Below, piece by piece: positions 17,301 through 46,020 of a stretch of 64,000 nucleotides of DNA. Both the position numbers and the translations under genes were made by a program. The notes under the pieces were generated by a model. That model was not told the origin of the DNA and searched no databases. It saw only the letters and a program-made list of their open reading frames with translations. Every line of letters begins with the position of its first letter. Position 1 is the stretch's first letter. Source of the DNA: Candidatus Hydrogenedentota bacterium (lineage in GTDB: Bacteria > Hydrogenedentota > Hydrogenedentia > Hydrogenedentales > SLHB01); contig JABWCD010000015.1 in the NCBI GenBank assembly GCA_013359265.1, forward strand, positions 40,329-104,328, in the 5' to 3' direction.

Positions 17301-17708
17301 TACGTGCATCCGTCTTTGCCGCAGGGTCCGTCCACGATCTACTGGTTTAAGGACAATGCCATCGTGCCGGCGTACACGAACCTGACGGTCGTGCCGCGCG
17401 CGGCGACAAAGCCGGGCGACTTATGGTACTTCCAGGTGCTTCCGGCGACCGTTTCCATCGGGACGTATGGCGGGCAACCCATATACCTGCGCGGCGCCCC
17501 GGTACTATCGAACGCGGTAAGCGTCGGGGCCGACATGAAGCTGGACACCAACGGCGACGGCAAGGTGAACTCGGTTGATCTGCAACTCGTGGTGCGCGGA
17601 TTGTTGGGTACATCCGAGCAGGGCATCGATCCGGACGTGAACGGCGACGGGAAGGAAGACGCCTCAGACGTTCAGACGATGATCAACTATATACTCGAGA
17701 AGCGTTAG
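14316..17708 (+). CDS. Secreted thermolysin-like (M4) zinc metalloprotease with a long beta-rich C-terminal extension and a terminal dockerin type-I module
   Basis: Signal peptide MRSGKLVIFAVGVAFVCAASAPYALA. HEXXH (VVGHELTHGV) plus the downstream GALNESFSD Glu ligand. The C-terminus has two Ca-loop repeats, DTNGDGKVNSVD and DVNGDGKEDASD. The listed ORF starts at GTG 14262; ATG 14316 is preferred because of the signal peptide. Confidence 0.85.
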   Translation: MRSGKLVIFAVGVAFVCAASAPYALADTEDAVRGVLTTMSGPNMLDNPRSSTTPEGYLRHVAAPSGNAFQPSPSAKKAGAPDAIAKSFLKEHDAAFGIHAGVTFTTNRVKSENARTFVKLDQVYKGVPVFGAQAIVQMKPDGGIVSILSDIMRDAPRVYSGELSLTPLLDGDEAAILAAGVLEDENPGIDFETNDPALYLYAPPVIGATGAVRLVYIVEASNAGAAVVIAERILIDAHSGATALRIPMILEAKNRTIYDAENVPDAIGTLRRAEGQPATNIHDVDAAYDFYGDTYDFYLSEHGRDSIDGAGMTMDATVRFCYGFCPFRNAFWDGVRMFFGEGWVTDDVVGHELTHGVTQHESNLIYSYESGALNESFSDVWGEFIDLANAAGTDTPEVKWLVGEDIANRGAIRSMKNPPAMSDPDTYLGPFWVFDSSDNGGVHTNSGVSNKLCYLLTDGDTFNGYIIDPMGIPTVAELYYECQTNLLGEGSDYPDFGNQLIVAAENLGLNDDEIDNVERALYATRILEFKFDPLRHFRAAGRSGDSRVALTWKNPTGGDFTGVDVVRNSDRFPVNNTDGTVIASVINGAESLVDTPGGGAGTDFYYGIFPRSGSFPGNLPLFARGTVGVDVNFLTEAFSNGTDLSNTQITIVPAGAVPLIGPATEKPEVYFNYTTYDAHGASAVKIAPNFDGTLPVAKEDYFLLSMADDGAVAFESSIPIPFFGRLMGDLIVSANGFIAAATDQYEAVTLNPTISRTSHFATPRISFLYSDLDPRSGGEVWARTLDDRLVITFEEVPSFDSSNLGTPGETFGNTVQCELFYGGQIRFTYLALTAERAVVGISDGNGVPLDVNDILNGQSADPADSNLNSLPDSVGLELQPVPIAFLEPGTVHEFTATALSTQGPPTYAMFPLTELGVPQMTGATLDAQTGEFSWDTTGVSDGVYGMILCAAAGQLTSCQIITAIVVTSDVLPQATNLSLTPTSPTDSDNLVASYTYVHPSLPQGPSTIYWFKDNAIVPAYTNLTVVPRAATKPGDLWYFQVLPATVSIGTYGGQPIYLRGAPVLSNAVSVGADMKLDTNGDGKVNSVDLQLVVRGLLGTSEQGIDPDVNGDGKEDASDVQTMINYILEKR

Positions 17709-24671: not shown

Positions 24672-24746
24672 TCACGGCGGCATACTTGCGCCACATTTGT
24701 GGAAGCAGGAAATGGCGCGGGGCAAGCCGCTACAATCGGCTTGATC

Positions 24747-31476: not shown

Positions 31477-33018
31477 GTGACTGAATTATGGGGCCGGAGG
31501 GCCTGCTGGGTTGTGATCGCGGCGGGTGTCGTGACGACGGTCGCGTTGCAGGCGTTCGTTCCGGCGGAGGAAGTGTTTTGGTCCGGCGACGGCGGCCTGA
31601 AGAACCTCATGGCGAAACAGTTTGCGCGCGGAACGATGCACGTCGATCTGCGACTGACGGAAAAGGAATGGGTACGCGAGTTATGGTCGTCCGGCCTGCA
31701 CCCGGGCGCGGTCGGCAACTACATGTTCGACATGGACGGCAAATACTTTTCGGTGTTTCCATACCCTTTTCCACTTTTCAGCGCGCCGTTCTATGCGCTG
31801 TTTGGCGTGCGTGGCTACTATATCCTTCCGGTGGTGTCGCTCTGGGCGCTTTGGATTTCGATGTACCTGGCGATGCGGCGCGCGTGTCTTGACGCATGGA
31901 AGATCGCGCTGTTGATGTTTGCGTTTATATTCGCCATGCCGGTCACGTTATACGGAGCTACATTCTGGGAGCATACGCCGGGCCTTGCACTCGCGATCAT
32001 CCCCGTTCTGTACACACTGCGTTATGACGACGAAGAGCCGGGCAGGATTGGGCCGACGCTCGCAGGTGCGTCGTTAGGACTCGCGGTGTGGTTTCGGCCG
32101 GAGACTCTGGCGCTTATTGCCGTGCTGATACCCGCGATGTTCGTGTGGCGCAAGGCGGCGCTCGGGATTCGGGGTTGGTTTCTGTTTTCGAGCGCGGCAG
32201 CCGGGATGATCGTCCTGTTCTTTGCGCTCAACTATTTTTTCTACGGCTACGCGCTCGGCACCCACGGGATTCAAATGACCAGCGGGGAACATTCGGCGCT
32301 GGGATGGGGCGTATTGGCGGAACGCTTCGCGCGCCTCGCCAGATTGACCGTGCATTATGCGCCCGTGGGCGGGTTCATGGTCTTCCTCCTCGGCGCACTT
32401 GCCGCGACGAAACGTTTCGCTTGGCGCAACGAATCCTCGTACTTGTTTGCGGTTGCCCTGCTTTTCTTTCCGCTGATGGTATTCATGGTCCCATCCGATG
32501 GTGGGTTTCAAATTGGGCCTCGGTTCGCGTTTATCGAGTTTGCTCTTATCATCCTTATCTGCGCGTTTGCATGGCGGACACTACCGCGATCGCGGGCGCT
32601 TCGCGCCGCGGCGGCCATCGTTCTCTTGTTGACCGTACTGTTGGGCATGAAACGAAGCGCGCTTCACGAAACACGTTGGCTCGCCGAAGCGTACCGAACG
32701 CGCGTACTGCCCGCCTACACGTTCATTGCCGAGCGCGACGAGAGCGTCCTGGCCGTGTCGCGCGTTGAGGCAACGCTGGAACTCGGCGGATTGATGGACG
32801 AAAAAGATTTCTTCGCCGCGTTCGATGACGAGAAATTCGCAAGACTGCTCGATGGGCTACGCGCCCGGAATATCGACCGTTTTCTGTTCGTTGCATTCGG
32901 CGATCGGAACACGGAACAAGACTCGGCGATTCAACACGAAGCAGCCAAGGCGCTTCGCATTGAGCCGCTCGGCAGATACGGCGAGCATTTCTATTGTTAC
33001 GCGGTGACAATCCCGTAA
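31477..33018 (+). CDS. Polytopic membrane protein, GT-C-type glycosyltransferase-like (ArnT/PMT_2-like)
   Basis: GTG start. ~12 TM helices, 513 aa, with loop motifs reminiscent of dolichyl-phosphate-mannose/ArnT-type transferases. Confidence 0.5.
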   Translation: MTELWGRRACWVVIAAGVVTTVALQAFVPAEEVFWSGDGGLKNLMAKQFARGTMHVDLRLTEKEWVRELWSSGLHPGAVGNYMFDMDGKYFSVFPYPFPLFSAPFYALFGVRGYYILPVVSLWALWISMYLAMRRACLDAWKIALLMFAFIFAMPVTLYGATFWEHTPGLALAIIPVLYTLRYDDEEPGRIGPTLAGASLGLAVWFRPETLALIAVLIPAMFVWRKAALGIRGWFLFSSAAAGMIVLFFALNYFFYGYALGTHGIQMTSGEHSALGWGVLAERFARLARLTVHYAPVGGFMVFLLGALAATKRFAWRNESSYLFAVALLFFPLMVFMVPSDGGFQIGPRFAFIEFALIILICAFAWRTLPRSRALRAAAAIVLLLTVLLGMKRSALHETRWLAEAYRTRVLPAYTFIAERDESVLAVSRVEATLELGGLMDEKDFFAAFDDEKFARLLDGLRARNIDRFLFVAFGDRNTEQDSAIQHEAAKALRIEPLGRYGEHFYCYAVTIP

Positions 33019-33121
33019 CGCGATTTCCACCCCCGGATTTCTGGACAGTCCCGGCGCGAATTCGCCATACTTTCTGTTCTTGGGTGGCGCCATTTTCTTG
33101 GCGAAACGTGGAGTGCAATTC

Positions 33122-35245
33122 GTGCGAGTTCGGTGGACCCATGCGGCGCTTGCGGCTGTCGCGGTTTTGAATGGCGCCTTCGCGGTACACGCTGAAATCG
33201 ACGGCGGCGTGCGCAATCAGGCGGGTTGGGAGCCGCTGTTCAACGGCAAGGACCTGACGGGCTGGTACACGTTCCTTCAACAACTCGGCAAGGGCGCCGA
33301 CCCGGACCAGGTCGTTTCCGTAGAAGACGGCGTTATTCACCTCTACAAGCACGCGCCGCAGGGCGGCAACGTCGTGATGGGTTATATTTCCACGGAGACG
33401 GAATTCGAGAACTATCACCTTCGCATCGAGTACAAGTGGGGCGGGAAGACGTTCGAGCCGCGCCTGGCGCTGCCGCGCGACGCCGGAGTCTATTACCACA
33501 TCGTTGGCGACGACGCAGTCTGGCCGAAATCGCTGCAATATCAAATCCAAGTAGACGACGTGGGCGACTTGATCGCGTTGTACGGTGTCGCGTGCGACAC
33601 CTGGATCGATCCCGCTACGAAAGCGGACGAGATGGCGACGTTTCTCGATTCTATTGACGGCGGCGAGGCGCGCACGCTCGGCGGCCCGGGTATCGCGTAT
33701 CAAAAGCGCCGCGGCATGTACGAACTCGAGGGATGGAACACGCTCGAAATCATCTGTCACGGCAGCACTTCGATGCACATTCTCAACGGCAAGCTCGTGA
33801 ACCGGTGTGAGAATATCCGCTATGCCGATCACGAGTCGGGCGCGCCGCCGCGGCCGTTGAGTAAAGGGCGCATTGCGCTCGAGATCGAAGCAGCGGAACT
33901 CTTCTACCGCAACATCGAGATCAAGCGTTTGCCCGCGCCGGGAGAAAAGCCCGCGCCCATCGAAGGGCCGGACGCGACGCTCGCGGTCGGCGCCGCCGCG
34001 GCGAACCTTATCGGCGACAACGACATGGTCATGGCGGGCGGCATCGGGCCGTGGAAGCCAAACGGGCAGGAAGGCCAACTGCGCGCGACGGCCTTGGTCG
34101 TGAGTAAGGAGCCGTACGGCGCGCTCGCGTTCGTCGGCTGTGACGTCCTGTTCGTAACGCGCGAGGTTGTGGACTCCGCGCTCGCCGAGATTCAGAGCGC
34201 AACAGGCATTCCACCGGAACGCGTGCTGGTGAACGCATCGCATACGCACAGCGCGCCGAGCACGATTCGCGTACACGGGTACGGCCCCGAGGAGCGGTTT
34301 CGCAAGGCCGTGCGCAACGGCATCGTTGAAGCCGTGAAACGGGCGCACGCAAAACTCGAAGACGGATGCACGTTCAACTATGCGCTAGGCGCGGAATACG
34401 GCGTCGGCGAAAACAGCCGGCTGCTATTGGCCGACAATACGATTTTTTGGATTGGACCGCATGAAGACCGCGTGCGCCCGACCGATCCGTTCGATCCGGA
34501 GCTGCCGGTGTTCGCGTTTTATGGCCCAGACGCAAAGCTGCGCTCAATCCTGTATAACCACTCGACGCATACGATTGGCACCGTTTCGGGCAGCGTGCGC
34601 TCGCCATCGTACTACGGACTCGCGGCACAGCAAATCGAGCAAGAGAATGGGGCGACTGTGTGCTTCCTCGAAGGCGCTTCCGGCTCCACGCACAACTTGT
34701 ACTTGACGACACCGGTAATGATCGAGCGAATGAAGGCTGCGATCAAAAACACGATCGATAAAGGAGCGCCGCAGCGCATCCCAAAGTTGGGCGCAATTCG
34801 GCGTCCTTTCACCTTTAAGGTGCGCACATTCGACGAGCAAGCCGAGGAACAGAAGGTGAGTTCCTACGTGAATAAGCGCGCCCCCGCGGGGGCGGAGTAC
34901 ACGATTGGCGTGTTCCGCACGATGCGCGAAGAAATGCGCGCGCAGCAGGGCGAAGCCCGGGAAACGTACCTGCAGGCGATACGGATTGGCGATGTCGCCG
35001 TTGTCGGTGTGCCGGCGGAGTACTTCACGGTGTTGGGAATCGAAATTAAGCGGCGGTCGCCGTTCGCAAACACGGTGGTTGCCGAGTTGAGCAACGATTG
35101 GATCGGCTACGTCGGCGACCGAAAGGGCTACGAGCGCGGGGGCTACCAAACGTGGTTCGGCTACCACAGTTATTGCGAGATTGGAACCGGGGAAGCCATT
35201 GTGGACGAAGTTGTGCGAATGCTGGACGAGCTGTTCGCAATGTAA
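33122..35245 (+). CDS. Secreted fusion protein: N-terminal DUF1080 (3-keto-disaccharide hydrolase-like jelly-roll) + C-terminal neutral/alkaline ceramidase-like domain
   Basis: GWEPLFNGKDLTGW...IEYK...GRIALEIE...FRNIEIKRL is the DUF1080 signature. The C-terminal half is ceramidase-like (MAGGIGPW...GCDVLFVTRE...NASHTHSAP). The start is ambiguous (TTG 33080 or GTG 33122 giving a signal peptide). Confidence 0.65.
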   Translation: MRVRWTHAALAAVAVLNGAFAVHAEIDGGVRNQAGWEPLFNGKDLTGWYTFLQQLGKGADPDQVVSVEDGVIHLYKHAPQGGNVVMGYISTETEFENYHLRIEYKWGGKTFEPRLALPRDAGVYYHIVGDDAVWPKSLQYQIQVDDVGDLIALYGVACDTWIDPATKADEMATFLDSIDGGEARTLGGPGIAYQKRRGMYELEGWNTLEIICHGSTSMHILNGKLVNRCENIRYADHESGAPPRPLSKGRIALEIEAAELFYRNIEIKRLPAPGEKPAPIEGPDATLAVGAAAANLIGDNDMVMAGGIGPWKPNGQEGQLRATALVVSKEPYGALAFVGCDVLFVTREVVDSALAEIQSATGIPPERVLVNASHTHSAPSTIRVHGYGPEERFRKAVRNGIVEAVKRAHAKLEDGCTFNYALGAEYGVGENSRLLLADNTIFWIGPHEDRVRPTDPFDPELPVFAFYGPDAKLRSILYNHSTHTIGTVSGSVRSPSYYGLAAQQIEQENGATVCFLEGASGSTHNLYLTTPVMIERMKAAIKNTIDKGAPQRIPKLGAIRRPFTFKVRTFDEQAEEQKVSSYVNKRAPAGAEYTIGVFRTMREEMRAQQGEARETYLQAIRIGDVAVVGVPAEYFTVLGIEIKRRSPFANTVVAELSNDWIGYVGDRKGYERGGYQTWFGYHSYCEIGTGEAIVDEVVRMLDELFAM

Positions 35246-35297
35246 CGCTCTCGTAGGAATATCGAGAGTCAGTCCGCAGGGGGAAAAAGAAGTAAAC

Positions 35298-38237
35298 ATG
35301 AAATCTATTGTGCTTGCCGTTTTGATGTGCGTTGCGGCCGCTGCGGGCCATGCTCAAGACAATCCGGCCGATCATCCGGTTGACAAAGTGCGGGCCGCAC
35401 TGCGCCTGGCCGATTCCTCGTTGACAATCGAGTGTGTGGCGAGCGAGCCGGACGTCATCGACCCCGTCGCTGTGACGTGGGACGAAGACGGACGCATGTA
35501 CGTTGTCGAGATGCGCGATTACCCGGCCGGGCCAGTGGGTGGAACCATTCGCCGGTTGACTGATGAAAACCAAGACGGACGTTACGAGCACGCTACGGTC
35601 TTTGCGGACAACCTGCCGTTTCCGAACTCCGCGCTCGCATACGACGGCGGGCTGCTCGTGACGGCGGCGCCGAACATTTGGTTTCTAAGAGACAATGACG
35701 GGGATGGTGTCGCGGACGAGCGGCGTGTCGTGCTCACCGGCTTCGGCGAAGGCAACGAGCAGTTGCGGATCAACGGGCTGTTCTGGGGCTTGGACAATTG
35801 GATTTACGCGGCCAATGGCCGTAGCGACGGTGAGGTACGCAAGCCAGACGACGGGCCGGAGACGGCAATTCCGCTTCGGCATCGAGACTTGCGTTTCAAG
35901 CCTGACGGCAGCGCGGTCGAAGCGATTGCGGGTTTCAGTCAATTCGGAATCTGTCAGGACGATTGGGGCAATCGCTTTCTCTCGTGGAACACCGTCCCGA
36001 TCCGTCACGTCGCGATCGAGGAGCGCTACCTCACGCGCAATCCGCATCTTGCCGTTACTTCGACCGAATCCCTCATAGCAGCGAAGGACCTGCGAATCTT
36101 CCCGGTTGTCCCGAAGCAGCAACGATTCAACACTGAGGTCATCGACTCGTGGAATGCGAGCTGCGGCCTGACGATTTATCGTGGCGACAAAATGCCCGCT
36201 TACGCCGGCAACGCATTTGTGTGCGAATCGGTGACCAGCCTGGTGCACCGTATGGTGCTGGAGCCCAACGGCCCGACCTTCGCGGCGCGGCGCGGCGACG
36301 CGGGCGTCGAATTTCTTGCGTCAACCGATCTGTGGTTCAAGGCAGTGAACCTTGCGACGGGACCCGATGGCGCGTTGTACGTGGTGGACTTCGCGCGCGA
36401 GTGGACCGAGCACCCTGATTTCGTGCCGGAGGGAATGCGCAGCGCCGTGAACTGGCGCAACGGCGACACGCTGGGACGCATCTGGCGCGTTCGTCCGCGA
36501 CAGTGGCCGGCGGATGGCTATGTAGTCCAGAAACTTTCGAGCGCGGCGCCGGGCGATCTGGTGCAGATCCTGGATCACGCAAACGCGTGGTACCGCGCAC
36601 AAGCGCAGCGGTTGTTGGTAACGCGGAAGGATGCATCGACCGTGCCCGCGCTAAAAGAAGTCGTACGTTCCGCATCCACGCCGCAGGGCCGCATCCATGC
36701 GCTGTGGACGCTGGAAGGAATGCAGGCGCTTGACGACGCGACCGTGGCCGGGGCGCTGGAAGACCACGACGCGCGCGTGCGCCGCCAGGCCGTATTGCTG
36801 GGCGAAACGCGCGCGGCAAACCCAAAGGTCCTTGTCGCGATGGCGAAGTTGTCCGCCGACCCCGATCCCGCGGTTCGGTTCCAACTGGCGGCATCCGCGG
36901 GAAGTCTTTCCGCGGATGCGCGCGTGGGGATTTGTCTCGAGATCGCGCAGACTGACGCGGTGGACCCGTGGTTTCGCCTCGCACTGCTTGGCAGTACGAA
37001 TGCCGAGACCCTGAAGTTCATTCTTGCGCTATTCGAGCGTTCACAAGGCGACATGGATGCGTACGCCTTCGCCAGATTCGAGTTCCTCGGCGCGTTGTGC
37101 GAAGTTGTGGGCAAGTCCGGGCACTCGGAAGATATCACGGCGCTGCTGGCGGCGATCGCGCGCCAGCAATTCATCACGGCGGTGCCGGATTTGGCGATGT
37201 TCTCCGGCCTCGCGCGGGGACTCTCGCAGTCCAAGAAGCCTTTGCGTCAATGGCTCATCGATCCGCCCGCAGGACTAACGGGAGAGACGATTGCCGCGCT
37301 GGGCCGCGTGTTCGCGTCGGCAGATTACGTTGCGCACAAGGACGACGCGCGCGACTTTCTCCGCGCCGCAGCGGTGTACGTGTTGGCGCAGGACCCCGAT
37401 CCGTCCGGTGTCGAGACCGTAAAGAAGCTGCTGGCCGGTGGCGACAACGACGCCGTGCGGAACGCCGCGCTGGATGCGTTGGTGAACGGCGGGGACCAGG
37501 CGGTGGTCGCGTCAATGATCGCGGACTGGCGCAAGCTGACGCGGCCCGCTCAGCGGGCGTTGGTCGCGAGCATGGTACGATCGCCCGACTCCGCAACGGT
37601 CCTACTGGACGCCATCGGCGCCGGCACGCCGTCGCCGTTGGAGATCGATCCGGCCGCGCGCGAAACCTTGAAAGCGTATCCGGTCCCCAAGTTAAGAGAG
37701 CGCGCGGCATCGCTTTTCGTCAGTTCGACCGCGGGCGCGAAGGCGGACGTGATTAGGACGTATTCCGCGGCGCTCGATCTTGCGGGCGACCGTGCGCGCG
37801 GGGCGGGCGTGTTCGCGCTGAATTGTCTGCCGTGCCACACGATTCAAGGCGTTGGCCAGCACGTTGGACCCGATCTGAGCGGCATTGCGAGCAAGACAAA
37901 GGAGCAACTGCTGCACTCGATCGTCGATCCGAGCGCGGAGATTTCGCCTGACTACATCAACTACACGATCTCGACCGTGGACTTCGAGATCGTCAACGGC
38001 GTGCTCGGCGGCGAGACGGCGTCGAGCATCACGCTGAGACAGGCGGCGGGAATCGAAACGACCGTGCTGCGGGAGAACATCGAGGAGATGACCGTCAGCG
38101 ATCAGTCGCTGATGCCGCAAGGATTGGAGGCAGCGTTTGACGTGCAGGGTATGGCGGACCTGCTCGAATTCCTGCACCATCCCGACCGGAAAATGTTGGA
38201 GGACGCCGCGAGAGCAGCCTTGCCGCCACAGGAGTAA
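35298..38237 (+). CDS. PVC-type heme-binding CxxCH protein: membrane-bound dehydrogenase-like beta-propeller domain + HEAT repeats + C-terminal cytochrome c domain
   Basis: Signal peptide MKSIVLAVLMCVAAAAGHA. N-terminal beta-propeller motifs (VTWDEDGRMYVVEMRDYP). HEAT-like repeats in the middle. C-terminal CLPCH heme-binding site. RBS agggggaaaaag upstream. Confidence 0.85.
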   Translation: MKSIVLAVLMCVAAAAGHAQDNPADHPVDKVRAALRLADSSLTIECVASEPDVIDPVAVTWDEDGRMYVVEMRDYPAGPVGGTIRRLTDENQDGRYEHATVFADNLPFPNSALAYDGGLLVTAAPNIWFLRDNDGDGVADERRVVLTGFGEGNEQLRINGLFWGLDNWIYAANGRSDGEVRKPDDGPETAIPLRHRDLRFKPDGSAVEAIAGFSQFGICQDDWGNRFLSWNTVPIRHVAIEERYLTRNPHLAVTSTESLIAAKDLRIFPVVPKQQRFNTEVIDSWNASCGLTIYRGDKMPAYAGNAFVCESVTSLVHRMVLEPNGPTFAARRGDAGVEFLASTDLWFKAVNLATGPDGALYVVDFAREWTEHPDFVPEGMRSAVNWRNGDTLGRIWRVRPRQWPADGYVVQKLSSAAPGDLVQILDHANAWYRAQAQRLLVTRKDASTVPALKEVVRSASTPQGRIHALWTLEGMQALDDATVAGALEDHDARVRRQAVLLGETRAANPKVLVAMAKLSADPDPAVRFQLAASAGSLSADARVGICLEIAQTDAVDPWFRLALLGSTNAETLKFILALFERSQGDMDAYAFARFEFLGALCEVVGKSGHSEDITALLAAIARQQFITAVPDLAMFSGLARGLSQSKKPLRQWLIDPPAGLTGETIAALGRVFASADYVAHKDDARDFLRAAAVYVLAQDPDPSGVETVKKLLAGGDNDAVRNAALDALVNGGDQAVVASMIADWRKLTRPAQRALVASMVRSPDSATVLLDAIGAGTPSPLEIDPAARETLKAYPVPKLRERAASLFVSSTAGAKADVIRTYSAALDLAGDRARGAGVFALNCLPCHTIQGVGQHVGPDLSGIASKTKEQLLHSIVDPSAEISPDYINYTISTVDFEIVNGVLGGETASSITLRQAAGIETTVLRENIEEMTVSDQSLMPQGLEAAFDVQGMADLLEFLHHPDRKMLEDAARAALPPQE

Positions 38238-38242
38238 GAGCC

Positions 38243-39715
38243 ATGCGTACCTACTGGGCCGCGATTCTGGCGGTGCTTGCCGCCATGGGCGCAAATGCGC
38301 AACGAAACGCGGACGACACGCCGTTACCCCAGGATCCGAAACAACTGATCTATGGCCACGCTCGCGTGGTCCACGCGCCCCCCACGTTCACGCCCCCGCC
38401 GGGCCCGCTCCTGTTTCTGGACGAGTACTTCATCGACGCGAGCGAAAACGTCTCGCGCGAAGTTGAGAGTCCCCAGCGTCGGGAATCGATTCCGAACCCC
38501 ATCGTGACCGGCAAAGAGGATGGGTGTTTTCAGCCGTACATGACAGTCCTGCGCGACGAGGAGAAGGATGTGTTTCGGCTGTGGTACGGGCGGCACACCG
38601 ATGCCATGGATTCGAACCGTTCGCGCATTGGGTACTTGGAGTCCACAGACGGAATTCGCTGGGAACGCCCGGCGCGCACGCTCAACGATCCCGGGCCAAT
38701 TCAGTTCGGTGTCGCGGTCGTTGATACCGGCGCGAATGCGCCCGAGTTGACGCGCCGGTACATTTACGCTTGGCATATCGACGGCTGGTTGAGTCTGGCC
38801 GGCTCCGCGGACGGCATCGCATGGTCCCCCCTCGATCCCTCGCGGGTGGTCAAACACAGTCATGACATCAACGGTTTGTATTTCGATCCGGTCCGCAACC
38901 GCTTCGTCGCTACCATTTCCGTCTATCGACCCGGCTACGATTGGAAGAACAACCGGCGCGTGACCATGCACAGTCTCAGCACGGATTTGAAGTCGTGGTC
39001 GGTCCCGCACTACGTCGTGCTGCCGTCTACGGAAGTCGATGACGGCGAGACGCAGTTCTACGCGATGGACGGTTACCTTGCCCGTGGGCGCACCGTGATC
39101 GGCATGGTAAAAGTGTTGCGGGACGATTTGAAAGCAGACGATCCGCCGGACCCGCCCGACGCGTACGGTGTCGGGTATACGGCGCTGGCGTGGTCCCACG
39201 ACGGCGTGCATTGGCTTCGCGACACCGCGCACTTCTTCGATCCGGACCCGCGCAAGGGGGCGTGGGACCACGCACACGCGTGGATCGACGAGCAGGTCCC
39301 GGTTGGCGGCGACGTGTATCTCTACTACGGTGGATACGCGCGCGGCCACAAGGTGAACCGATTCGAGGAACGGCAGATCGGGTTGGTGACGATGAAGCGC
39401 GACCGGTACGTAGCGCGCGTGGCCGGTAAAACGCCTGGCGTGTTGCGCACGGTTCCATTCACGTTCATTGGCGAATCGCTGTCCATCAACGCCAATGCGA
39501 GCGGCGGTGGGATTCGAGTGCGCGTACTCGACGACACGGGAGGGCCCGTTCGCGGGTTTTCATACGAGGATTGCACGCCGATTACGGGCGACTCGCTCGA
39601 TGCTCCGATTGAATGGAAGGCAAAAGCCGTCGCGTTGCGCGGAAAGTTGATTCGGCTGGAGTTTGCGCTGAAGGACGCGCGCTTATACGCGTTGAACATC
39701 GTGGGCGCGGAATAG
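38243..39715 (+). CDS. Secreted hypothetical protein, probable beta-propeller glycoside hydrolase-like (GH32/GH43/GH117-type fold) with C-terminal beta-sandwich
   Basis: Signal peptide. Repeated Trp/Asp-rich beta-strand blocks. C-terminal beta-sandwich-like region. Family not assigned with confidence. Confidence 0.45.
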   Translation: MRTYWAAILAVLAAMGANAQRNADDTPLPQDPKQLIYGHARVVHAPPTFTPPPGPLLFLDEYFIDASENVSREVESPQRRESIPNPIVTGKEDGCFQPYMTVLRDEEKDVFRLWYGRHTDAMDSNRSRIGYLESTDGIRWERPARTLNDPGPIQFGVAVVDTGANAPELTRRYIYAWHIDGWLSLAGSADGIAWSPLDPSRVVKHSHDINGLYFDPVRNRFVATISVYRPGYDWKNNRRVTMHSLSTDLKSWSVPHYVVLPSTEVDDGETQFYAMDGYLARGRTVIGMVKVLRDDLKADDPPDPPDAYGVGYTALAWSHDGVHWLRDTAHFFDPDPRKGAWDHAHAWIDEQVPVGGDVYLYYGGYARGHKVNRFEERQIGLVTMKRDRYVARVAGKTPGVLRTVPFTFIGESLSINANASGGGIRVRVLDDTGGPVRGFSYEDCTPITGDSLDAPIEWKAKAVALRGKLIRLEFALKDARLYALNIVGAE

Positions 39716-39934
39716 GGCGCGCGTCGAGGCGGTATCCACTGCGCCTCGTGTACGAAACTCAAAAAGGGGTAACCACGTACCGTCCGGGTTTGTGGCCAGA
39801 CTCGACCGTAATCCGCCCAAGCGAGGCCAGTGCAAATCGGCGTTCGGGAATTCGGGGACACCCACCGCCGGCGCAGCCGATTTCGTGTTCGTAGCCGGCC
39901 TCGCATTCGGCGGCAACAGTCGTTCACATCGAGA

Positions 39935-41620
39935 TCAGAACTCGATCGAAGTATAGAAGTAGACAAAGTCCTGGTCGTCGTCGCTGCGGCCGCCGATGTT
40001 GCGCAGGCCATATTCGTCGGTAAACGCAATACCCTCTCCAATTGCGTCGCCGGTGAACCAGTGGGACCAGCCAAGCTCGAATGTGAGGTTGTCGGAGTAC
40101 GCGTAGGTAACCCAAAGGGACGTCTGCCAGCCGAGGTCTTTCGAGCCGTCCTCAGTCCAGAACGAAAGCGCGGGCGCAACAGGAACCTTCCAGTCACCGA
40201 ATGTAACGCCAACCGGACTGTCAAACCCTTCGATCAATTCGAGGTACGACAATGTCAGTCCGAGTTCCACGCGTTCACTCGGGTATGCGTTTACGCCGAT
40301 ATAACCTTTCCAGAAGTTCGACATTGCGGTCACGTCGATGAACATGTCTTCGAGCCACGAGGTGAACAGGCGATTGAACGAAACGCTGCTATCCGGACGG
40401 TCGAACGGATTGAGCCACTCGAGAAACGAAATGTCCCGGTTGTCCTCGCCGCCGTAATACGCGCCGCCCAGAAACGCGCGGGTGCTCCACGTGAGCGGAG
40501 TCGTCCATCCCACTTCGAAGTGCCCGGCCCACGAATCGTATTCGGCGTCATCGTCGCCGTAGAGCTGGTTGGCTGGCTTGAACAGGAACCCGGTGGAATC
40601 GGCATCGCCCCACTGGTAGGCCGCCTCCGCTTCCCAGTCGAACCCGCTCCACGTGCCCGCCCCGCGCGCGCCCACGGTGTGCAACTGCGTGGCATCGTAG
40701 TCATCCAGATTTGCGGCGTCTTCCAGCCATTCGATTGGCGCGGCGAAATTAGTGTCGTTCAGGCTGCCCGCGTCGCGGAGATACATGTAGTAGGCGTCGA
40801 ACTGCAGGTTGGACGATACGGGCGCTGTACGCCCGCGAAACGGGCCGTTGCGCATGAATGCGTCGTACATGCCATAGACGACCCGCATGGGGAACAGCAT
40901 CTGGCGCATGTTCTGGGGCATGATACCCGCGCTGCCGTCACCAATTGCCCACGTGGCGTACATGCCGTAGAAGTCGACGTCTCCATCCTGCTCGCTTGCG
41001 CCACGCTCGGCGAGCTTGCTTGCCCACGCGTCGATGCGCATTGTCTCATCTCCGATCGTAAGGCGCATTGCATCGAAGGAGAGGCCGACGAACGGGTCTG
41101 GTCCGGAATCGCTTCCCATGAGCCAGCCGGAACCGAACTCCAACTCCTGCCGCCCGATGCGTAATTGCGCAGGAAGGCCGAAGAGTTTGTCGACACTGAT
41201 ATAAGCCTGATGGATATCGATTCCGTCGATCGAGTTCCCGCGGGCGTCGCGGCCAGTCAGGTAGTCGGAACGAAAATCGTCTCCCCATCCTGACACGTTG
41301 TCCAGCTCGATGAACGCGGTGACTTCGTTCGTGAAGTCGGCAAGCACGTGGAGTCGTGTGCGCTGCTCCCAATAATCGGCGTTGTGTCCACCGTCACCCG
41401 CGCGCAGCCAAGACGCAGTGTTGTATGGGCCTATAGGCCGCGAGGGCAAGAAGAAGTTTGGAATGCGCTCGGCGTTCCCGCTCCGCTCGAACAAGTTCGA
41501 ATACCACGCGCCGTAGATTTCGATTTTGCCGCCGATCTCGACATTCTGGAGATCGCCGGGCGCCGGCGCAGCGGCGAGAATAAAGATGCCGGCCACCAGT
41601 AAATACGTCGGAATTCGCAT
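39935..41620 (-). CDS. Outer-membrane beta-barrel protein (alginate-export/porin-like)
   Basis: Signal peptide MRIPTYLLVAGIFILAAAPAPG. Alternating amphipathic beta-strands rich in Y/W/G. C-terminal ...YFYTSIEF with terminal Phe. Confidence 0.65.
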   Translation of the reverse strand: MRIPTYLLVAGIFILAAAPAPGDLQNVEIGGKIEIYGAWYSNLFERSGNAERIPNFFLPSRPIGPYNTASWLRAGDGGHNADYWEQRTRLHVLADFTNEVTAFIELDNVSGWGDDFRSDYLTGRDARGNSIDGIDIHQAYISVDKLFGLPAQLRIGRQELEFGSGWLMGSDSGPDPFVGLSFDAMRLTIGDETMRIDAWASKLAERGASEQDGDVDFYGMYATWAIGDGSAGIMPQNMRQMLFPMRVVYGMYDAFMRNGPFRGRTAPVSSNLQFDAYYMYLRDAGSLNDTNFAAPIEWLEDAANLDDYDATQLHTVGARGAGTWSGFDWEAEAAYQWGDADSTGFLFKPANQLYGDDDAEYDSWAGHFEVGWTTPLTWSTRAFLGGAYYGGEDNRDISFLEWLNPFDRPDSSVSFNRLFTSWLEDMFIDVTAMSNFWKGYIGVNAYPSERVELGLTLSYLELIEGFDSPVGVTFGDWKVPVAPALSFWTEDGSKDLGWQTSLWVTYAYSDNLTFELGWSHWFTGDAIGEGIAFTDEYGLRNIGGRSDDDQDFVYFYTSIEF

Positions 41621-41689
41621 GTTTCACACCCCCGGTCGTGAAGTGTAGTTATGCAAATGACGGGCGTTTCGTCAAGCACCTTCTTGAAC

Positions 41690-43903
41690 CTACCCTGCTT
41701 CGGCGCGCGCCTCGGCCATCCCTCCCGCGGATTCCCGCTCGCGAGTCCACATCAGGAAGCGTTCGATTCGGTCATAGACTTCGATTGCGCCGTCTCCGTT
41801 GATAATGCCGTGGCGGCTGGAATCTAGGACGACCAGTTCCTTCTGGTGCGTGCCGATCTGGCTGAATATGTTTTGGCCACTCGACGGCTCGACCAGTGGG
41901 TCGCGGAACCCTTGAATGACGAGCGAAGGGACGCAGACGTCTTTCAGCACGCCCTCCATCGCGGACATCGCTTTACCCAGTTCGCGCACGCCGGTGATAG
42001 GGTTGCGCGCGTAGTTGATGTGCTTGTTCTCGGGGTGGTTCTCGATGAATTCCCAGCCCTGCCCGCCGCGCAGGCGCGTAATGAGGCTGTTCATCGACAC
42101 CAGTTGCGAGGCGAAACGCGCCATGTAGTTGCGCAATTGCAGGGGCGCGTTGATGGAAAACACCGCTTTAATCTTGTCTTTCTTGCGCCCCGCCGCCAGT
42201 AGGGCAAGCGTGCCGCCCGTGGAGAAGCCGCCAAGCACGATGTAATCGGTCAGGCTCTTGATGATCGCGTAGCCGCGGTTCAGCGATTCGTACCAGTCTT
42301 CCCACGGCGTTCGTGCAAGGTCCTCGGGCGACGTGCCGTGCCCGCGCAGCCGCACGCCGTACACCGCGAACCCGTGGTGCGCGAAAAACTCGGCCATTGC
42401 GCGGACTTCCAGCGGCGCCGCCATGTAGCCGTGCACGAGCACCATGCCTGCCTTGTATTTCGGCGGCGCAATCAGGAACGGCCGGCCGACGTCCATCGGC
42501 CGGCTTTCACCGGGTTTCGCGAAGTTCGCGTAGTCCAGTTCGAAAAGTTCGTTGTCTTCCTTGAGAAAGAGTTCGCGGATTTTTCCGGACAGCACGGGCC
42601 TGGGAATTGCCGCGACATTTCGGATGATTCCCGTGAGGATGGAGAGCGGCTCGACCTCGTTTGCGATGACGGTCGTGATTTCGTCCTTGCGCACACTGTG
42701 GAAGTCGCCTTGCCCCGTGCGCATCTGGGAGTTGCGCACGTACTCATTTCCCTCTTTGATGAGAATTCCGTCGTTAATGCACAAGTCGAGGAAGTCGGTG
42801 AAAATCGGCGCGGAATCTTCGTAGATGATGTCTCGGTATGACTTGTCCAGAAAGTGGTGCAGCCGGTGCTGATTGAGTTGCTTGATCTGGTGTACGGCCA
42901 GGAAGATGCGGTTACGATACGCGCGCTCGGTAAACTTGCGGGCACGCTGATAACGAATGAGTGTTCCGAAAATGTGATCGTAGTTTACCGTGGTGTTGCG
43001 GTAGATGTCCGCCATGAACCGAATCATCAAACGCCGAGCGGCCTCGTTAAACCCGGATTCCGGGTCTTCTTCCAGCGCGTTCAGATCGGTCTCGATCGAT
43101 TCGACGAGCAGCTTGCAGTCGGTTTCCTGCAGGTAGTGGCCCACCTCGATGGGATCGCCGAAGGTCACGTCGATGTCGGTGTCCTTCGACAGGACAGTGC
43201 CCTCGACGGACAACTCCTCGATGGCGCGTTTGCTGAGGTCTTTCGCGAACGCCCGCGCTACGCGGAGCATCATATTCTCGCGCGCGCGAATCGGAAAATA
43301 GGTAACGTTCACAGGCACGACGAAGGTGCGCTTTTGCAGGGCCTGCTCGACATTTTGCAGGCCGAGATGCGAGAGAATCGGCTGGATGGCGGGCTGTTTG
43401 TCCGCGCGGTCTTTGAAGCACGCAAGCCGTTGGCGGTAGTACTCCGCGCGCAGCGCGAGCACGGCCGCGCCGGTGTGCGGCGGGCGGCGGATGCCCTTGC
43501 TGTAGACCTTAAACTCGCCTTTCGGATCGACTACCTTTTTGTCCTTAATCATCCCGCCTTCGGGAAAGATGATCCACGGGTGCTCGCCCGTGAGCAACGA
43601 ATTGACGATGATCTTGTCGCGATCGGGATCCTGCGTGGATACGTTCCCCATCGACAACAAATATTGGCCGATCCTGCCGACGAAAAGTTCCGCCGCGGCC
43701 AGCGACCAAATCTCCTTGCCGGTGTACTTATGGAGGACATACGGGAGAAGCACGGTTTCGATGCGAGTGAAGTGGTTAACGACATAGATGATCGCCATGT
43801 CGTCCTTGATCCCGTCGATGTTATGGACGCGAATGTTGGCCTTGATGAGCTTCGTGGCGATGTCCAAGGCCCATTTGGTGGACTTTAGTGCGATTGCTCC
43901 CAT
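41690..43903 (-). CDS. Fusion protein: N-terminal 1-acyl-sn-glycerol-3-phosphate acyltransferase-like (PlsC family) + C-terminal alpha/beta hydrolase (lysophospholipase/esterase-like)
   Basis: VVNHFTRIE (NHxxxxD/E motif I) and IIFPEGGMI (FPEGG motif III) in the first ~200 aa. C-terminal VLVHGYMAAP...GFSTGG (GxSxG)...D...H hydrolase elements. Confidence 0.7.
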   Translation of the reverse strand: MGAIALKSTKWALDIATKLIKANIRVHNIDGIKDDMAIIYVVNHFTRIETVLLPYVLHKYTGKEIWSLAAAELFVGRIGQYLLSMGNVSTQDPDRDKIIVNSLLTGEHPWIIFPEGGMIKDKKVVDPKGEFKVYSKGIRRPPHTGAAVLALRAEYYRQRLACFKDRADKQPAIQPILSHLGLQNVEQALQKRTFVVPVNVTYFPIRARENMMLRVARAFAKDLSKRAIEELSVEGTVLSKDTDIDVTFGDPIEVGHYLQETDCKLLVESIETDLNALEEDPESGFNEAARRLMIRFMADIYRNTTVNYDHIFGTLIRYQRARKFTERAYRNRIFLAVHQIKQLNQHRLHHFLDKSYRDIIYEDSAPIFTDFLDLCINDGILIKEGNEYVRNSQMRTGQGDFHSVRKDEITTVIANEVEPLSILTGIIRNVAAIPRPVLSGKIRELFLKEDNELFELDYANFAKPGESRPMDVGRPFLIAPPKYKAGMVLVHGYMAAPLEVRAMAEFFAHHGFAVYGVRLRGHGTSPEDLARTPWEDWYESLNRGYAIIKSLTDYIVLGGFSTGGTLALLAAGRKKDKIKAVFSINAPLQLRNYMARFASQLVSMNSLITRLRGGQGWEFIENHPENKHINYARNPITGVRELGKAMSAMEGVLKDVCVPSLVIQGFRDPLVEPSSGQNIFSQIGTHQKELVVLDSSRHGIINGDGAIEVYDRIERFLMWTRERESAGGMAEARAEAG

Positions 43904-44032
43904 CGCGATCCCTTTGTGAGCGACTCCATTGGACGGCGCCGGACTCGCCGGCTAGCGTCGGCACTATAGCCCATTGATGACTCCCCGACAATCTATCGGT
44001 ATCATGCCGCGAAACCTTGAGCGCCGGGTGGC

Positions 44033-45250
44033 CTAATTCGATGCTGCGCCCGGCGGCCGTCCTTCACGCGCCGTGTTTTCGATGATATCAGCCGCGGTGT
44101 TTGCGCCATCGCTCGCTCGTACGAGTCCCGCCATGCGTTGCGCCGACGATCGGCACGATTCGCTCTCGACGATTTCGCGAACCGCGCCTGCAAGCATTCC
44201 GTTCACCGCGTCGCGCAATTCCAATATGCGGCAGAACCCGTGACCCGCAGCGATGCGCGCGTTGATGCGTTGTTCGTTGTGCGTGGGCACGGCGAGCATA
44301 GGCACGCCGTGCTGCAGCGCCTGGTACATGCTGCCGTTTCCACCGTGAAAGACGAGGGCACTGCACCGCTTCAGAATCTCCGCGCCGGGCGCGAAATCGG
44401 TCATGCGGAAATTCGTGGGCAGATCGCCCAGGGCGCCGCGATCGACTTGTCCGCCTGTGGTAACGATGAAACGGTATGGCAGCTTCGCAAGCGAATCGAG
44501 CGCGGCCCGCAACACGACGTCCAGGACGCCGGTCGAGCCCATCGTGAGATAAACGTTTTTCGTCCCGTCGTCCAATTCCGAAAACCAGTCAGGCGCCGGC
44601 GCCGGATAGTCGAACAGGATCGGTCCTGTCATGCGCGCGTTGCGCAACACGCCGCTCGTCTCGTACATGCCGGGCAGGTCCGGCGAGAGCAGCGGTACGG
44701 ACAGGAATAAGTCGACGGCGCGTATTGCGGGTTTGCCGTGTTTCGCGTACACGCCGCGGCGTTTTGCCGCGAGAAACACGGCATCGTAGGCGTCCCAATA
44801 AAAGCGCCACATCCGGCGAGAGAGAATGCCGTCGATATAGTAGGCGTTGTATACGTTGACGGCGGGCACGCCGGCGATATACGCGGCGTTGCTCATGGAC
44901 ATCGTTGCGAATCCGGCCACGGCGTCCGGCCGTTCCGCTTTGATGACCTCGACCTGGCTTTCCATGATCTCGCCAACGGGCATCCATTTAGCCGGTGAGC
45001 AGACGGCGCCCACGGTCCCGCGAAATCCCGCTGTCGTCATCCTTTCCCAGAGGTAAGAGAAGTTGGGCTCACGCACGGGTACCGTGTTGAAAGCCGCCTT
45101 CGCCACAATGTCCATTCGGGAACGATGGTGCGTCGTATTTTCGGCCGCGAACACTACGTCGTGTCCGCGGTCGCGCAGGACACGCGCGACCTCGTAACTC
45201 CGGGATACGTGCGCGAGAACCTGAGAGAGCGGGAAGAAGACGAACTTCAT
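44033..45250 (-). CDS. Glycosyltransferase family 1, MGT/UDP-glycosyltransferase-like
   Basis: C-terminal VFHGGNGSMYQALQHGVPMLAVPTHNEQ nucleotide-sugar binding motif (GT1/UGT signature). Confidence 0.8.
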   Translation of the reverse strand: MKFVFFPLSQVLAHVSRSYEVARVLRDRGHDVVFAAENTTHHRSRMDIVAKAAFNTVPVREPNFSYLWERMTTAGFRGTVGAVCSPAKWMPVGEIMESQVEVIKAERPDAVAGFATMSMSNAAYIAGVPAVNVYNAYYIDGILSRRMWRFYWDAYDAVFLAAKRRGVYAKHGKPAIRAVDLFLSVPLLSPDLPGMYETSGVLRNARMTGPILFDYPAPAPDWFSELDDGTKNVYLTMGSTGVLDVVLRAALDSLAKLPYRFIVTTGGQVDRGALGDLPTNFRMTDFAPGAEILKRCSALVFHGGNGSMYQALQHGVPMLAVPTHNEQRINARIAAGHGFCRILELRDAVNGMLAGAVREIVESESCRSSAQRMAGLVRASDGANTAADIIENTAREGRPPGAASN

Positions 45251-46020
45251 GGGTTTAGGCGCTGGGACAGCAGCCAGTTTACGTGGCTTGGGCGCGAATA
45301 CGTCATGTAAAAGATTTGATGGTCCGCGCCGGGAATTTCGACGTACTCGACGGTGCCACCCAATTCCCTGATCGCATCCACCAAATCACGGGATGTCTGG
45401 ACGGGCGTCGCCGGGTCCGCGTCGCCGTGGGCGATGAAGATCGGAATGTCGGTCAACATGGGTGCATACTCCACGTCGACCGAACCGGCAATGGCGAACA
45501 AACCCGCGAAGATGTCCGGCGTGTCGATGACGTAATGCATCGCCCGGATGCTGCCGGTCGACGCACCCGCAACGTAGATGCGCTCCGGGTCTACGCTGTA
45601 GTCCTGCTTGAGTTGCTCAAGGACCGCGTTGAATATCGCGTTTCCGTCCTCTATGGAAATGAAATAGGGTAGCTGCGGAAGCGCGACAAGGCAGGGGTAC
45701 AGTTCGGGGTGCGAATCGAGAGCGAGCCCGATTCCGTCCCGGTACGGCGCGGCGCCATCCGTCCCCGCTTGAAACAGGCCGTGCCAATAGAGAATCAGGG
45801 GGGTTGGCGTCGCAGGGTCGTAATTGTCCGGTACGTATACGATGTACCAAGGCTTCTCTCCTCCGACTTGTATCTGGTATCGATACAGGCGGTGCGCGAA
45901 GTTTCCTGCCGTGACGGGGTCACGCCGGGGGCAGCCCAGGTTCATGCCGGCGAGGATTAGGACAGCGATTGCGGCTGCGGCTGCGCGAGACCCGCGCCGT
46001 CGCGTATTACCTGGCTGCAT
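45247..46020 (-). CDS. Lipoprotein alpha/beta hydrolase (esterase/PHB-depolymerase-like)
   Basis: Lipobox LAGMNLGC. GASTGS nucleophile elbow plus Asp/His (IAHGDAD). 4-nt overlap with the downstream GT1 gene. Confidence 0.75.
   Translation of the reverse strand: MQPGNTRRRGSRAAAAAIAVLILAGMNLGCPRRDPVTAGNFAHRLYRYQIQVGGEKPWYIVYVPDNYDPATPTPLILYWHGLFQAGTDGAAPYRDGIGLALDSHPELYPCLVALPQLPYFISIEDGNAIFNAVLEQLKQDYSVDPERIYVAGASTGSIRAMHYVIDTPDIFAGLFAIAGSVDVEYAPMLTDIPIFIAHGDADPATPVQTSRDLVDAIRELGGTVEYVEIPGADHQIFYMTYSRPSHVNWLLSQRLNP

Follow-up and report, generated by a model that had tools for sequence, protein, structure and literature searches.

A neutral-ceramidase-like hydrolase and a propeller-cytochrome c protein as a probable functional pair in Candidatus Hydrogenedentes and other bacteria

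The stretch analysed here (the window) comprises 64,000 nucleotides of chromosomal DNA from an uncultured Candidatus Hydrogenedentes bacterium, and this report concerns three consecutive genes on its forward strand, termed ORF1, ORF2 and ORF3. ORF1 encodes a fusion of a DUF1080 domain with a Zn-hydrolase domain of neutral-ceramidase type, ORF2 a beta-propeller protein with HEAT repeats and a cytochrome c domain, and ORF3 a second, glycosidase-like propeller. ORF1 and ORF2 very probably form a functional unit, since their genes show conserved adjacency in three phyla and have been joined by independent gene fusions. Tentatively, the pair can be read as the form that a conserved periplasmic catabolic module of two components takes in Hydrogenedentota. 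In such a module, a Zn hydrolase of the neutral-ceramidase fold would work with, and probably contact, a quinohemoprotein-like oxidoreductase on a carbohydrate-containing substrate, probably N-acylated or otherwise derivatised. This partnership of a ceramidase-fold hydrolase with a propeller-cytochrome c protein, recurrent and repeatedly fused across three phyla, is apparently undescribed; literature searches on DUF7133 (the propeller family of ORF2), on ceramidase with planctomycetes and on ceramidase-like proteins linked to these cytochrome proteins returned nothing.

The conserved partnership of ORF1 and ORF2

The three genes and their domains are as follows (all on the + strand; aa, amino acids):
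33122..35245, +: ORF1, secreted fusion of DUF1080 with a neutral-ceramidase-like Zn hydrolase; 707 aa, GTG start
33122..33193, +: ORF1 signal peptide, residues 1-24, cleavage ...VHA/E (the slash marks the site), read from the sequence
33224..33925, +: DUF1080 (PF06439) jelly-roll domain, residues 35-268, with LEIEA replacing the canonical LQDHG
33989..35242, +: neutral-ceramidase-like catalytic domain, residues ~290-707, motifs HTH, NSR, NHSTH, PAE, GY and GGY
35298..38237, +: ORF2, secreted heme-binding protein of the Planctomycetes-Verrucomicrobia-Chlamydiae (PVC) type (DUF7133 propeller, HEAT, cytochrome c); 979 aa, ATG start
35418..36500, +: six-bladed DUF7133/TIGR02604 beta-propeller
36558..37694, +: helical HEAT-repeat region, HEAT_2 in 3 stretches
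37785..38177, +: TIGR02603 c-type cytochrome domain, CxxCH (CLPCH) at 37824-37838, distal Met in SLMPQG
38243..39715, +: ORF3, secreted five-bladed beta-propeller with C-terminal beta-sandwich, of an unclassified glycoside-hydrolase/phosphorylase-like family; 490 aa, ATG start

Profile searches bear out the composition that an initial annotation of this DNA had proposed for ORF1, with both parts scoring above their cutoffs: PF06439 scores 104.9 bits (cutoff 26.8; E 7e-30) along its full length of 187 positions (1-187), and PF04734 scores 40.4 bits (cutoff 32.1; E 2e-10), with ORF1 residues 315-416 aligned to positions 31-141 of its 509. The description of ORF2 as a dehydrogenase-like propeller with HEAT repeats and a CxxCH cytochrome c likewise holds. 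Hidden Markov model matches to PF23500 DUF7133 (E 2e-122), HEAT_2 and Cytochrom_C are accompanied in NCBIfam by TIGR02604 (254.3 bits, cutoff 122.2) and TIGR02603 (122 bits, cutoff 68.15), and the heme domain aligns to domain 2 of the diheme protein 7ZS0 (E 1.5e-12) with both CLPCH and SLMPQG matched. By these profiles, ORF2 is a PVC-type heme-binding CxxCH protein.

The partnership was traced in a genome-collection scan, in which 317 species genomes held a ceramidase-like relative; the best 80 were analysed and 72 of these could be evaluated downstream, adjacency being defined as a DUF7133 domain starting within 1 kb (<=1 kb) downstream on the same strand. A DUF7133 gene adjoined the ceramidase-like gene in 34 of the 72, from Planctomycetota, Verrucomicrobiota and Hydrogenedentota, and lay near it, not adjacent, in five further genomes. 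Chance adjacency would amount to a fraction of a percent (~0.1-0.3% per neighbour slot), because 20 TIGR02604 genes are present among the 7,728 genes of Limnoglobus roseus (PMC7397252). Most of the adjacent DUF7133 copies share 50-60% identity with ORF2 (range 28-80%), and paralogues from these loci that are clearly not orthologous (L028, L043, L063, L076) show 26-34%. Furthermore, context look-ups for two distant fusions of Hydrogenedentota type and a planctomycete stand-alone protein found a DUF7133-HEAT-cytochrome c gene as the next gene downstream in each, while all neighbours except the counterparts of ORF1 and ORF2 differ between the three contexts.

The two components are also found on single chains. 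Single ORFs of 1,380-1,920 aa in L047, L056, L063 and L046 carry, from N- to C-terminus, the ceramidase-like domain, LamG_3, DUF7133, HEAT and cytochrome c, and an exhaustive search of 1.84 billion representatives (7,279 ceramidase-like family clusters at E <= 1e-3) gave long representatives of which all six scanned are DUF7133 fusions. The ceramidase-like domain is N-terminal in P0362, P0367, P0369 and P0439, stands last, past the cytochrome domain, in P0364, and occurs in P0361 as two copies flanking the propeller; P0365 and P0368 carry cytochrome or propeller motifs beside the ceramidase-like part and look like further fusion fragments. Because fusions occur in both domain orders, independent fusion events and a tight, probably physical, functional coupling of the ceramidase-like and propeller-cytochrome proteins are implied.

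The initial annotation had linked ORF1 to ORF2 through the DUF1080 domain and had counted ORF3 as a third member. The link itself is borne out by the adjacency in three phyla and by the fusions, and the conserved partner of the cytochrome protein proves to be the ceramidase-like domain, not DUF1080. The triad did not survive comparison with relatives. The conserved core is the hydrolase part of ORF1 together with ORF2, since ORF3 follows the pair only in locus L009, from the nearest relative, and ORF3 homologues mostly lie elsewhere.

In planctomycetes, the pair is embedded in a conserved cluster (L039:27-16613, L013, L023 and ~15 other loci) with the order Ser/Thr kinase, Wzy_C-like membrane protein, extracytoplasmic function (ECF) sigma factor, 136-aa protein, ~800-aa protein, ceramidase-like protein, DUF7133-cytochrome c protein and 140-aa protein. 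The ~800-aa protein has a weak GH20b/GH67N-like match at its N-terminus, and the arrangement suggests dedicated ECF-sigma regulation of the module in planctomycetes. Apart from a generic ECF sigma match, the flanking genes (kinase, ECF sigma factor, ~800-aa protein) have no counterpart in the window.

Ceramidase-like genes that lack a DUF7133 neighbour adjoin genes such as those for phosphoglycerate mutase, glycinamide ribonucleotide (GAR) synthetase, CRISPR Cmr and an SSF transporter; an alternative partner was considered for them and rejected, these neighbours being housekeeping or unrelated. Sulfatases beside ceramidase-like genes (L088, L051 and others) were also dismissed as a signal, their frequency being about that expected from sulfatase abundance in these phyla. 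Tandem arrays occur in some Verrucomicrobiota and Planctomycetota metagenome-assembled genomes (MAGs), where genes for two to four ceramidase-like paralogues are interspersed with those for SGSH-type sulfatases and a DUF7133-cytochrome c protein (L088:1-11000, L044, L045, L043, L076). PSCyt/PSD1 and DUF1501 pairs lie just 3' of the module in L003 and L005.

Substrate and chemistry of the proposed module

The ceramidase-like domain of ORF1 belongs to the same catalytic-domain fold family as the neutral ceramidases of Pseudomonas aeruginosa (PaCD, 2ZWS) and human (ASAH2, 4WGK), and like them it is secreted. In alignments to 2ZWS (E 8e-8 for ORF1), PaCD residues His97, His99, Arg160, His204, Glu411, Tyr448 and Tyr460 correspond to H90/H92, R149, H199, E349, Y379 and Y391, which are invariant in the 32-member family profile A2. 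From the PaCD and human neutral ceramidase structures we take His97, His204, Glu411 and Tyr448 to be the Zn ligands and His99, Arg160 and Tyr460 to be catalytic. All of these align in ORF1, whose domain thus retains the complete catalytic residue set. The match is nevertheless remote: PF04734 covers ~110 of 509 positions, the family profile reaches E 1e-12 against 2ZWS, and the C-terminal Ig-like domain of neutral ceramidases is lacking, ORF1 stopping ~30 residues beyond the end of its alignment with the PaCD catalytic domain. Relatives that stand alone are similarly short (~445 aa, as against 646 for the 2ZWS chain); proteins of this kind, 55-60% identical, are abundant in Planctomycetota and Verrucomicrobiota. 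On these comparisons, the domain is best regarded as a remote relative, not an orthologue, of true ceramidases.

Genomic context argues against a sphingolipid role. Unlike the setting of neutral ceramidases, the partners and neighbours of the ORF1 family are carbohydrate-active or redox proteins and not sphingolipid genes. Besides DUF7133 and DUF1080, the fusion partners of the ceramidase-like domain comprise a complete GH32 (P0106), GHL10 (L076) and the lectin-like LamG_3, and a planctomycete MAG (L071) carries consecutive genes for a ceramidase-like protein, a stand-alone DUF1080 protein (Pfam E 8e-38) and a DUF7133 protein. These partners are glycan-directed rather than lipid-directed, and a glycan or glycoconjugate is the likely substrate. 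The glycolipid suggested by the initial annotation found no direct support.

The assignment of ORF2 as an oxidoreductase rather than a plain hydrolase is somewhat favoured. Quinohemoprotein dehydrogenases and the fungal AA12 pyranose dehydrogenase likewise carry a propeller together with a cytochrome in a single polypeptide. Fold comparison, by which alone the ORF2 propeller is tied to solved structures, gives a six-bladed fold closest to soluble glucose dehydrogenase (sGDH) and AA12, with dehydrogenases as the top structural matches and propellers of lactonases and other hydrolases also among the close neighbours. The likeness to the pyrroloquinoline quinone (PQQ) sugar dehydrogenases and the AA12 enzyme CcPDH (1C9U, 2ISM, 6JT5, 6I1T) is one of fold without detectable sequence similarity, and PQQ binding is putative; no PQQ genes were present near the operon among the scanned ORFs of the window. 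The cytochrome, moreover, is c-type and C-terminal in ORF2, behind ~400 residues of HEAT repeats, whereas that of CcPDH is b-type and N-terminal. That the His/Met c-type cytochrome domain is kept family-wide and in most fusions scanned argues for electron transfer by ORF2.

The alternative is that no redox step exists, ORF2 being a propeller glycoside hydrolase whose heme is structural, regulatory or a sensor, and ORF1 and ORF3 being further hydrolases of a conventional glycan operon. It draws on Lac161_ORF7 (AGW45552) from a Chthoniobacter-like soil cosmid (KF255994), which was produced in S. meliloti, has the TIGR02604, HEAT and cytochrome c architecture and which, as a purified protein, released glucose from lactose (Cheng et al., 2017, PMC5342196), a report overlooked by the initial annotation when it described PVC-type heme-binding proteins as being of unknown substrate. 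The resemblance to ORF2, which is one of architecture, extends over all three parts (TIGR02604 propeller, HEAT_2, CxxCH cytochrome c), and the source organism belongs to the PVC group. Lac161_ORF7 acted without an added electron acceptor, and glucose was also released by the five-bladed propeller enzyme Lac161_ORF10, with which it shares a putative operon that mirrors ORF2-ORF3 (PMC5342196). The loci differ in that Lac161_ORF8 and ORF9 separate ORF7 from ORF10, whereas ORF2 and ORF3 adjoin directly, and in that the Lac161 locus as described (ORF6-ORF12) includes neither a ceramidase-like nor a DUF1080 gene. Planctomycete genomics papers also treat the TIGR02604 family as putative glycoside hydrolases, and the hydrolase propellers among the structural neighbours of ORF2 fit such a role. 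Against it stand the family-wide c-type cytochrome (with TIGR02603 well over cutoff), the dehydrogenases at the top of the fold comparison and the nature of the lactose assay, a coupled peroxidase read-out with a heme protein that is unreplicated. A purely hydrolytic operon is accordingly regarded as very unlikely.

The DUF1080 domain was central to the chemistry first proposed for this locus. The characterised member BT2157 degrades 3-keto-trehalose (Liu et al., 2021, PMC8121099), and such enzymes, which the initial annotation had called hydrolases, are now considered lyase/hydratases, BT2157 having been redefined as a 3-keto-alpha-glucoside 1,2-lyase and 3-keto-2-hydroxyglucal hydratase in which the sugar is held by His275, Gln273, Lys245 and a metal (Nasseri et al., bioRxiv 10.1101/2024.03.25.586180). 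The BT2156-BT2160 and Alistipes AL1-4 systems resemble ORF1-ORF2 in clustering a secreted DUF1080 protein with a periplasmic oxidoreductase and in the logic of stepwise, non-Koshland glycoside cleavage. They differ in that their oxidoreductases are NAD-bound Gfo/Idh/MocA proteins, ORF2 being a propeller-cytochrome c protein, in having no ceramidase-like domain, and in a TIM-barrel lyase partner that is not found in the immediate neighbourhood of the ORF1-ORF3 operon. No known sugar 3-dehydrogenase (Gfo/Idh/MocA, GMC/LacABC or ThuAB) was found among the scanned ORFs of the window, and the oxidoreductase candidate that adjoins DUF1080 belongs to another family, DUF7133.

The solved DUF1080 proteins 4JQT, 3U1X and 3HBK carry LQDHG near the C-terminus, where LEIEA aligns in ORF1. 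The comparison rests on these proteins, BT2157 being absent from the PDB matches to the DUF1080 profile, and LQDHG is equated with its Gln273-x-His275 by the Q-x-H spacing, so that Gln273-x-His275 would correspond to E-x-E in ORF1. Both glutamates (E254 and E256) are invariant in 22 of 22 fusion homologues, as are other polar residues, and the stand-alone DUF1080 protein of L071 carries LQAEG at this position. Since LEIEA takes the place of LQDHG and the glutamates and other polar residues are invariant, the domain is under strong constraint with an altered site; it may still be catalytic on a different substrate, or may be a binding module. Its fusion to the ceramidase-like domain is limited to ~24 protein clusters (90% identity), every named one of which is from Hydrogenedentes. 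DUF1080 is a Hydrogenedentota-specific addition. Nearly all versions in Planctomycetota and Verrucomicrobiota lack it, so that it is not essential to the module.

These results bear on the scheme of the initial annotation, in which ORF2 would oxidise C3 of a glycoside, DUF1080 would cleave the product by beta-elimination/hydration, the ceramidase-like domain would handle the lipid aglycone of a glycolipid and ORF3 would be an obligatory third member. In its favour, 3-keto-glycosides are the only substrates of BT2157, which depends on a partner dehydrogenase (PMC8121099; bioRxiv 10.1101/2024.03.25.586180), and the cytochrome c-dependent periplasmic 3-ketoglycoside dehydrogenases LacABC and ThuAB exist, in which periplasmic sugar oxidation feeds cytochrome c, as it would in the proposed module, and in some bacteria precedes the action of DUF1080-type enzymes (cited in PMC8121099). 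The families of those proteins (a GMC flavoprotein in LacABC; ThuA/ThuB) are, however, unrelated to ORF2. The scheme also accords with the strong conservation of the DUF1080-hydrolase fusion in its ~24 clusters, with the ceramidase-DUF1080-DUF7133 gene order in L071, with the sugar-dehydrogenase-like fold of the ORF2 propeller and with lipid-related genes nearby in the window. Those lipid-related neighbours lie on the opposite strand and are unconserved past L009, and the fusion partners of the hydrolase (GH32, GHL10, LamG_3) are not lipid-directed. As far as is known, oxidation by enzymes of the sGDH/AA12 fold takes place at C1 of free sugars and not at C3 of glycosides, and none is known to us to make 3-keto-glycosides. 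With DUF1080 outside the conserved core of Planctomycetota and Verrucomicrobiota and dispensable, its motif changed to LEIEA, no C3-oxidising enzyme of the sGDH fold known to us and the triad kept only in L009, the 3-keto step is weakened. A route through a 3-keto intermediate handled by DUF1080 is accordingly possible but doubtful, the earlier scheme of C3 oxidation, DUF1080 cleavage and a glycolipid substrate rather unlikely, and its full form with an obligatory ORF3 unlikely. The broader proposal of a periplasmic oxidative route remains plausible.

Oxidation could instead take place at the reducing end. In the manner of sGDH, Asd and AA12 enzymes, ORF2 would then form a lactone by oxidising a free sugar or oligosaccharide at its anomeric carbon, the ceramidase-fold hydrolase would be the cognate lactonase or a sugar-preparing deacylase, and DUF1080 and LamG_3 would only bind carbohydrate. 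Dehydrogenase-lactonase gene pairs are common. The occurrence of two unrelated ConA-like domains (DUF1080 and LamG_3) at equivalent positions on the hydrolase fits a binding role, as the non-canonical DUF1080 motif fits lost lyase chemistry. The hydrolase, on the other hand, keeps the full amidase-type catalytic set of ceramidases, and we know of no lactonase of the ceramidase fold. In addition, the invariant acidic cluster of the DUF1080 domain resembles a functional site more than a generic carbohydrate-binding surface, and the sole TIGR02604 family member assayed cleaved a glycosidic bond. This route is given a low likelihood.

In the two-component module that is tentatively preferred, the hydrolase domain would first cut an amide (or ester/lactone) bond, the amide type being proposed because the ceramidase machinery is intact. 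ORF2, with its propeller of PQQ sugar-dehydrogenase fold, HEAT spacer and own His/Met heme c, would then oxidise a sugar hydroxyl, and electrons would pass through that heme c to the respiratory chain. The gained DUF1080 domain would process the resulting keto-sugar (by beta-elimination/hydration, as in the 3-keto-glycoside pathway) or bind the glycan, and ORF3, probably coupled to ORF2 in translation, would trim the same glycan as a lineage-specific accessory of glycosidase or phosphorylase type.

Several observations weigh against this reading. ORF2 has no GSDH Pfam match, and its propeller profile retrieved nothing from the PDB at E <= 10, hence no PQQ-dehydrogenase sequence match. For the only TIGR02604 protein assayed, the reported activity is that of a hydrolase (beta-galactosidase) and not of a dehydrogenase. 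About half of the ceramidase-like relatives are without a neighbouring DUF7133 gene. The canonical sugar-binding Q-x-H of DUF1080 is replaced by E-x-E in ORF1, L071 is the only exception to the absence of DUF1080 from Planctomycetota and Verrucomicrobiota modules, and the idea that LamG_3 in the ceramidase-DUF7133 fusions is a cryptic DUF1080 was rejected (hhalign probability 3%). No sugar transporter or regulator linked to the operon was found among the scanned window ORFs. Lastly, ORF3 homologues on long contigs lie mostly in unrelated contexts, once beside GH127- and GH43-like genes.

PVC bacteria and Hydrogenedentota play a major part in the degradation of complex glycans and carry dozens of TIGR02604/DUF7133 and DUF1080 genes whose chemistry is little known. 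A robust, fusion-confirmed partner for one DUF7133 subfamily, namely a ceramidase-fold Zn hydrolase with an apparently intact catalytic site, provides a concrete, testable handle; it indicates which proteins to co-express and predicts a periplasmic hydrolase acting with a cytochrome-linked oxidation step. Such a partnership would broaden the ceramidase superfamily to non-lipid substrates and add to the emerging oxidative, non-Koshland pathways of glycan breakdown. More speculatively, and with a small probability, the neutral-ceramidase fold could have been diverted from lipid to glycan chemistry in the PVC group and Hydrogenedentota, serving as a periplasmic N-deacylase or related amidase that docks on a propeller-HEAT-cytochrome c quinohemoprotein. 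The two would form a class, not recognised before, of respiratory-chain-linked machines for oxidative degradation of glycans or glycoconjugates, in which the Glu-for-Gln/His substitutions of DUF1080 adapt a keto-sugar lyase/hydratase site to the amino-sugar product of the deacylase.

Gene layout and expression signals

All three genes appear to be real. Two Logan assemblies hold the same locus, with independent gene calls that agree on 707, 979 and 490 aa; ORF1 is 100% identical to protein P0001 of a Candidatus Hydrogenedentes MAG (NCBI) and ORF3 to NCBI MAG protein P0121, and homologues of the three number hundreds to thousands. The NCBI record of P0001 (692 aa) begins 15 codons later (33167 vs 33122), by which the signal peptide is lost; the 707-aa start is favoured by alignment, the N-termini of homologues being equally long and similarly hydrophobic. 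Direct reading of the sequence gives Sec-type signal peptides for all three products (ORF1 ...AFAVHA/EIDGG, ORF2 ...AAAGHA/QD, ORF3 ...MGANA/QR). The initial description of three secreted + strand proteins is thereby upheld as to genes, strand and secretion, and its spacer range of 5-50 nt is slightly exceeded, with 52 nt between ORF1 and ORF2 and 5 nt between the ORF2 stop and the ORF3 ATG.

The three genes are assigned to one operon on account of these spacers, the signal peptide on each product and the finding of no terminator-like site between them in a terminator scan. A ribosome-binding-site-like GGGGAAAAAG lies 5' of the ORF2 start, and translational coupling of ORF2 and ORF3 is likely because the GGAG ahead of the ORF3 ATG overlaps the end of ORF2. 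Two further elements flank the genes:
33042..33071, +: sigma-70-like promoter match TGGACA-18-CATACT, in the 103-nt gap 5' of ORF1
39725..39748, no strand assigned: 7-bp inverted repeat CGAGGCG-10 nt-CGCCTCG, between ORF3 and the convergent porin gene

The promoter match is a positional hint only, as sigma-70-like matches in the 31-42 kb region show no enrichment (1 found vs 3.1 expected from shuffles). The inverted repeat has no T-run and was not called as an intrinsic terminator in the scan.

ORF3 and the rest of the window

ORF3 was correctly anticipated to be a glycosidase-like beta-propeller. An AlphaFold (AF2) model built on 46 homologues (predicted local distance difference test score, pLDDT, 92) shows a five-bladed propeller with a C-terminal beta-sandwich, and its Foldseek matches include 7FIR, 4UDK, 5MUI, 1VKD and GH32 entries (E 1e-10 to 1e-8). 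The best PDB matches are GH130 mannoside phosphorylases, BT_0996, 1VKD and GH32, with GH137 and GH43 propellers also matched. At the sequence level, ORF3 has no Pfam or NCBIfam match and fits none of GH130, GH32, GH43 and GH137, its close homologues giving just GH32N at E 0.02-0.04, and the best PDB match of its profile (A1) is at E 0.15. One of the top structural matches of ORF3, 1VKD, also served as the template on which Lac161_ORF10 (AGW45555) was modelled; Lac161_ORF10 is a member of Pfam DUF377, whereas ORF3 is in no Pfam family.

The ORF3 family (1,335 matches) is 55-60% identical across Hydrogenedentota, Planctomycetota, Verrucomicrobiota, Armatimonadota and Omnitrophica, and one record in it is labelled Bathyarchaeia. 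It has no Pfam model and shows many invariant Asp, His and Glu residues, and some members are fused to PA14 or GDSL-esterase domains. It is proposed as a candidate unclassified glycoside-hydrolase/phosphorylase family, and ORF3 flags a large glycosidase-like propeller family that searches of Pfam, NCBIfam and solved-structure sequences leave unplaced. In a tblastn comparison with 80 related genome loci, ORF3, the membrane protein upstream of ORF1 and the porin downstream are syntenic in L009 only, and ORF3 is accordingly a lineage-specific addition to the ORF1-ORF2 pair.

Neighbouring genes in the window encode GT-C-type glycosyltransferase-like membrane proteins, an outer-membrane efflux protein and a SpoIIE-type sensor phosphatase. 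Directly 5' of ORF1 (31477-33018) lies the gene of that membrane protein, a multi-pass protein of 513 aa with no Pfam match (62% identity in L009), and a TMEM260/PMT-like GT-C glycosyltransferase with TPR repeats is encoded at 24699-26789. A convergent minus-strand cluster at 39935-46020 comprises the AlgE-like porin, an acyltransferase-alpha/beta-hydrolase fusion (737 aa), a GT1 protein and an esterase; it looks like lipid or glycolipid-related chemistry, and its porin and acyltransferase are also syntenic in L009, the cluster not being conserved further.

Farther away, 14262-17708 encodes a secreted 1,148-aa M4 (thermolysin-like) metalloprotease with a C-terminal type I dockerin, and the minus strand at 61560-63965 carries a DUF1501 and DUF1800 pair typical of planctomycete-type genomes. 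No tRNA genes or Rfam elements were found in the whole 64-kb window. The segment 58400-59700, with a GC content of 0.52 against ~0.61 elsewhere and three small minus-strand ORFs (58558-59001, 58812-59396 and 59393-59692), may be a small acquired islet.

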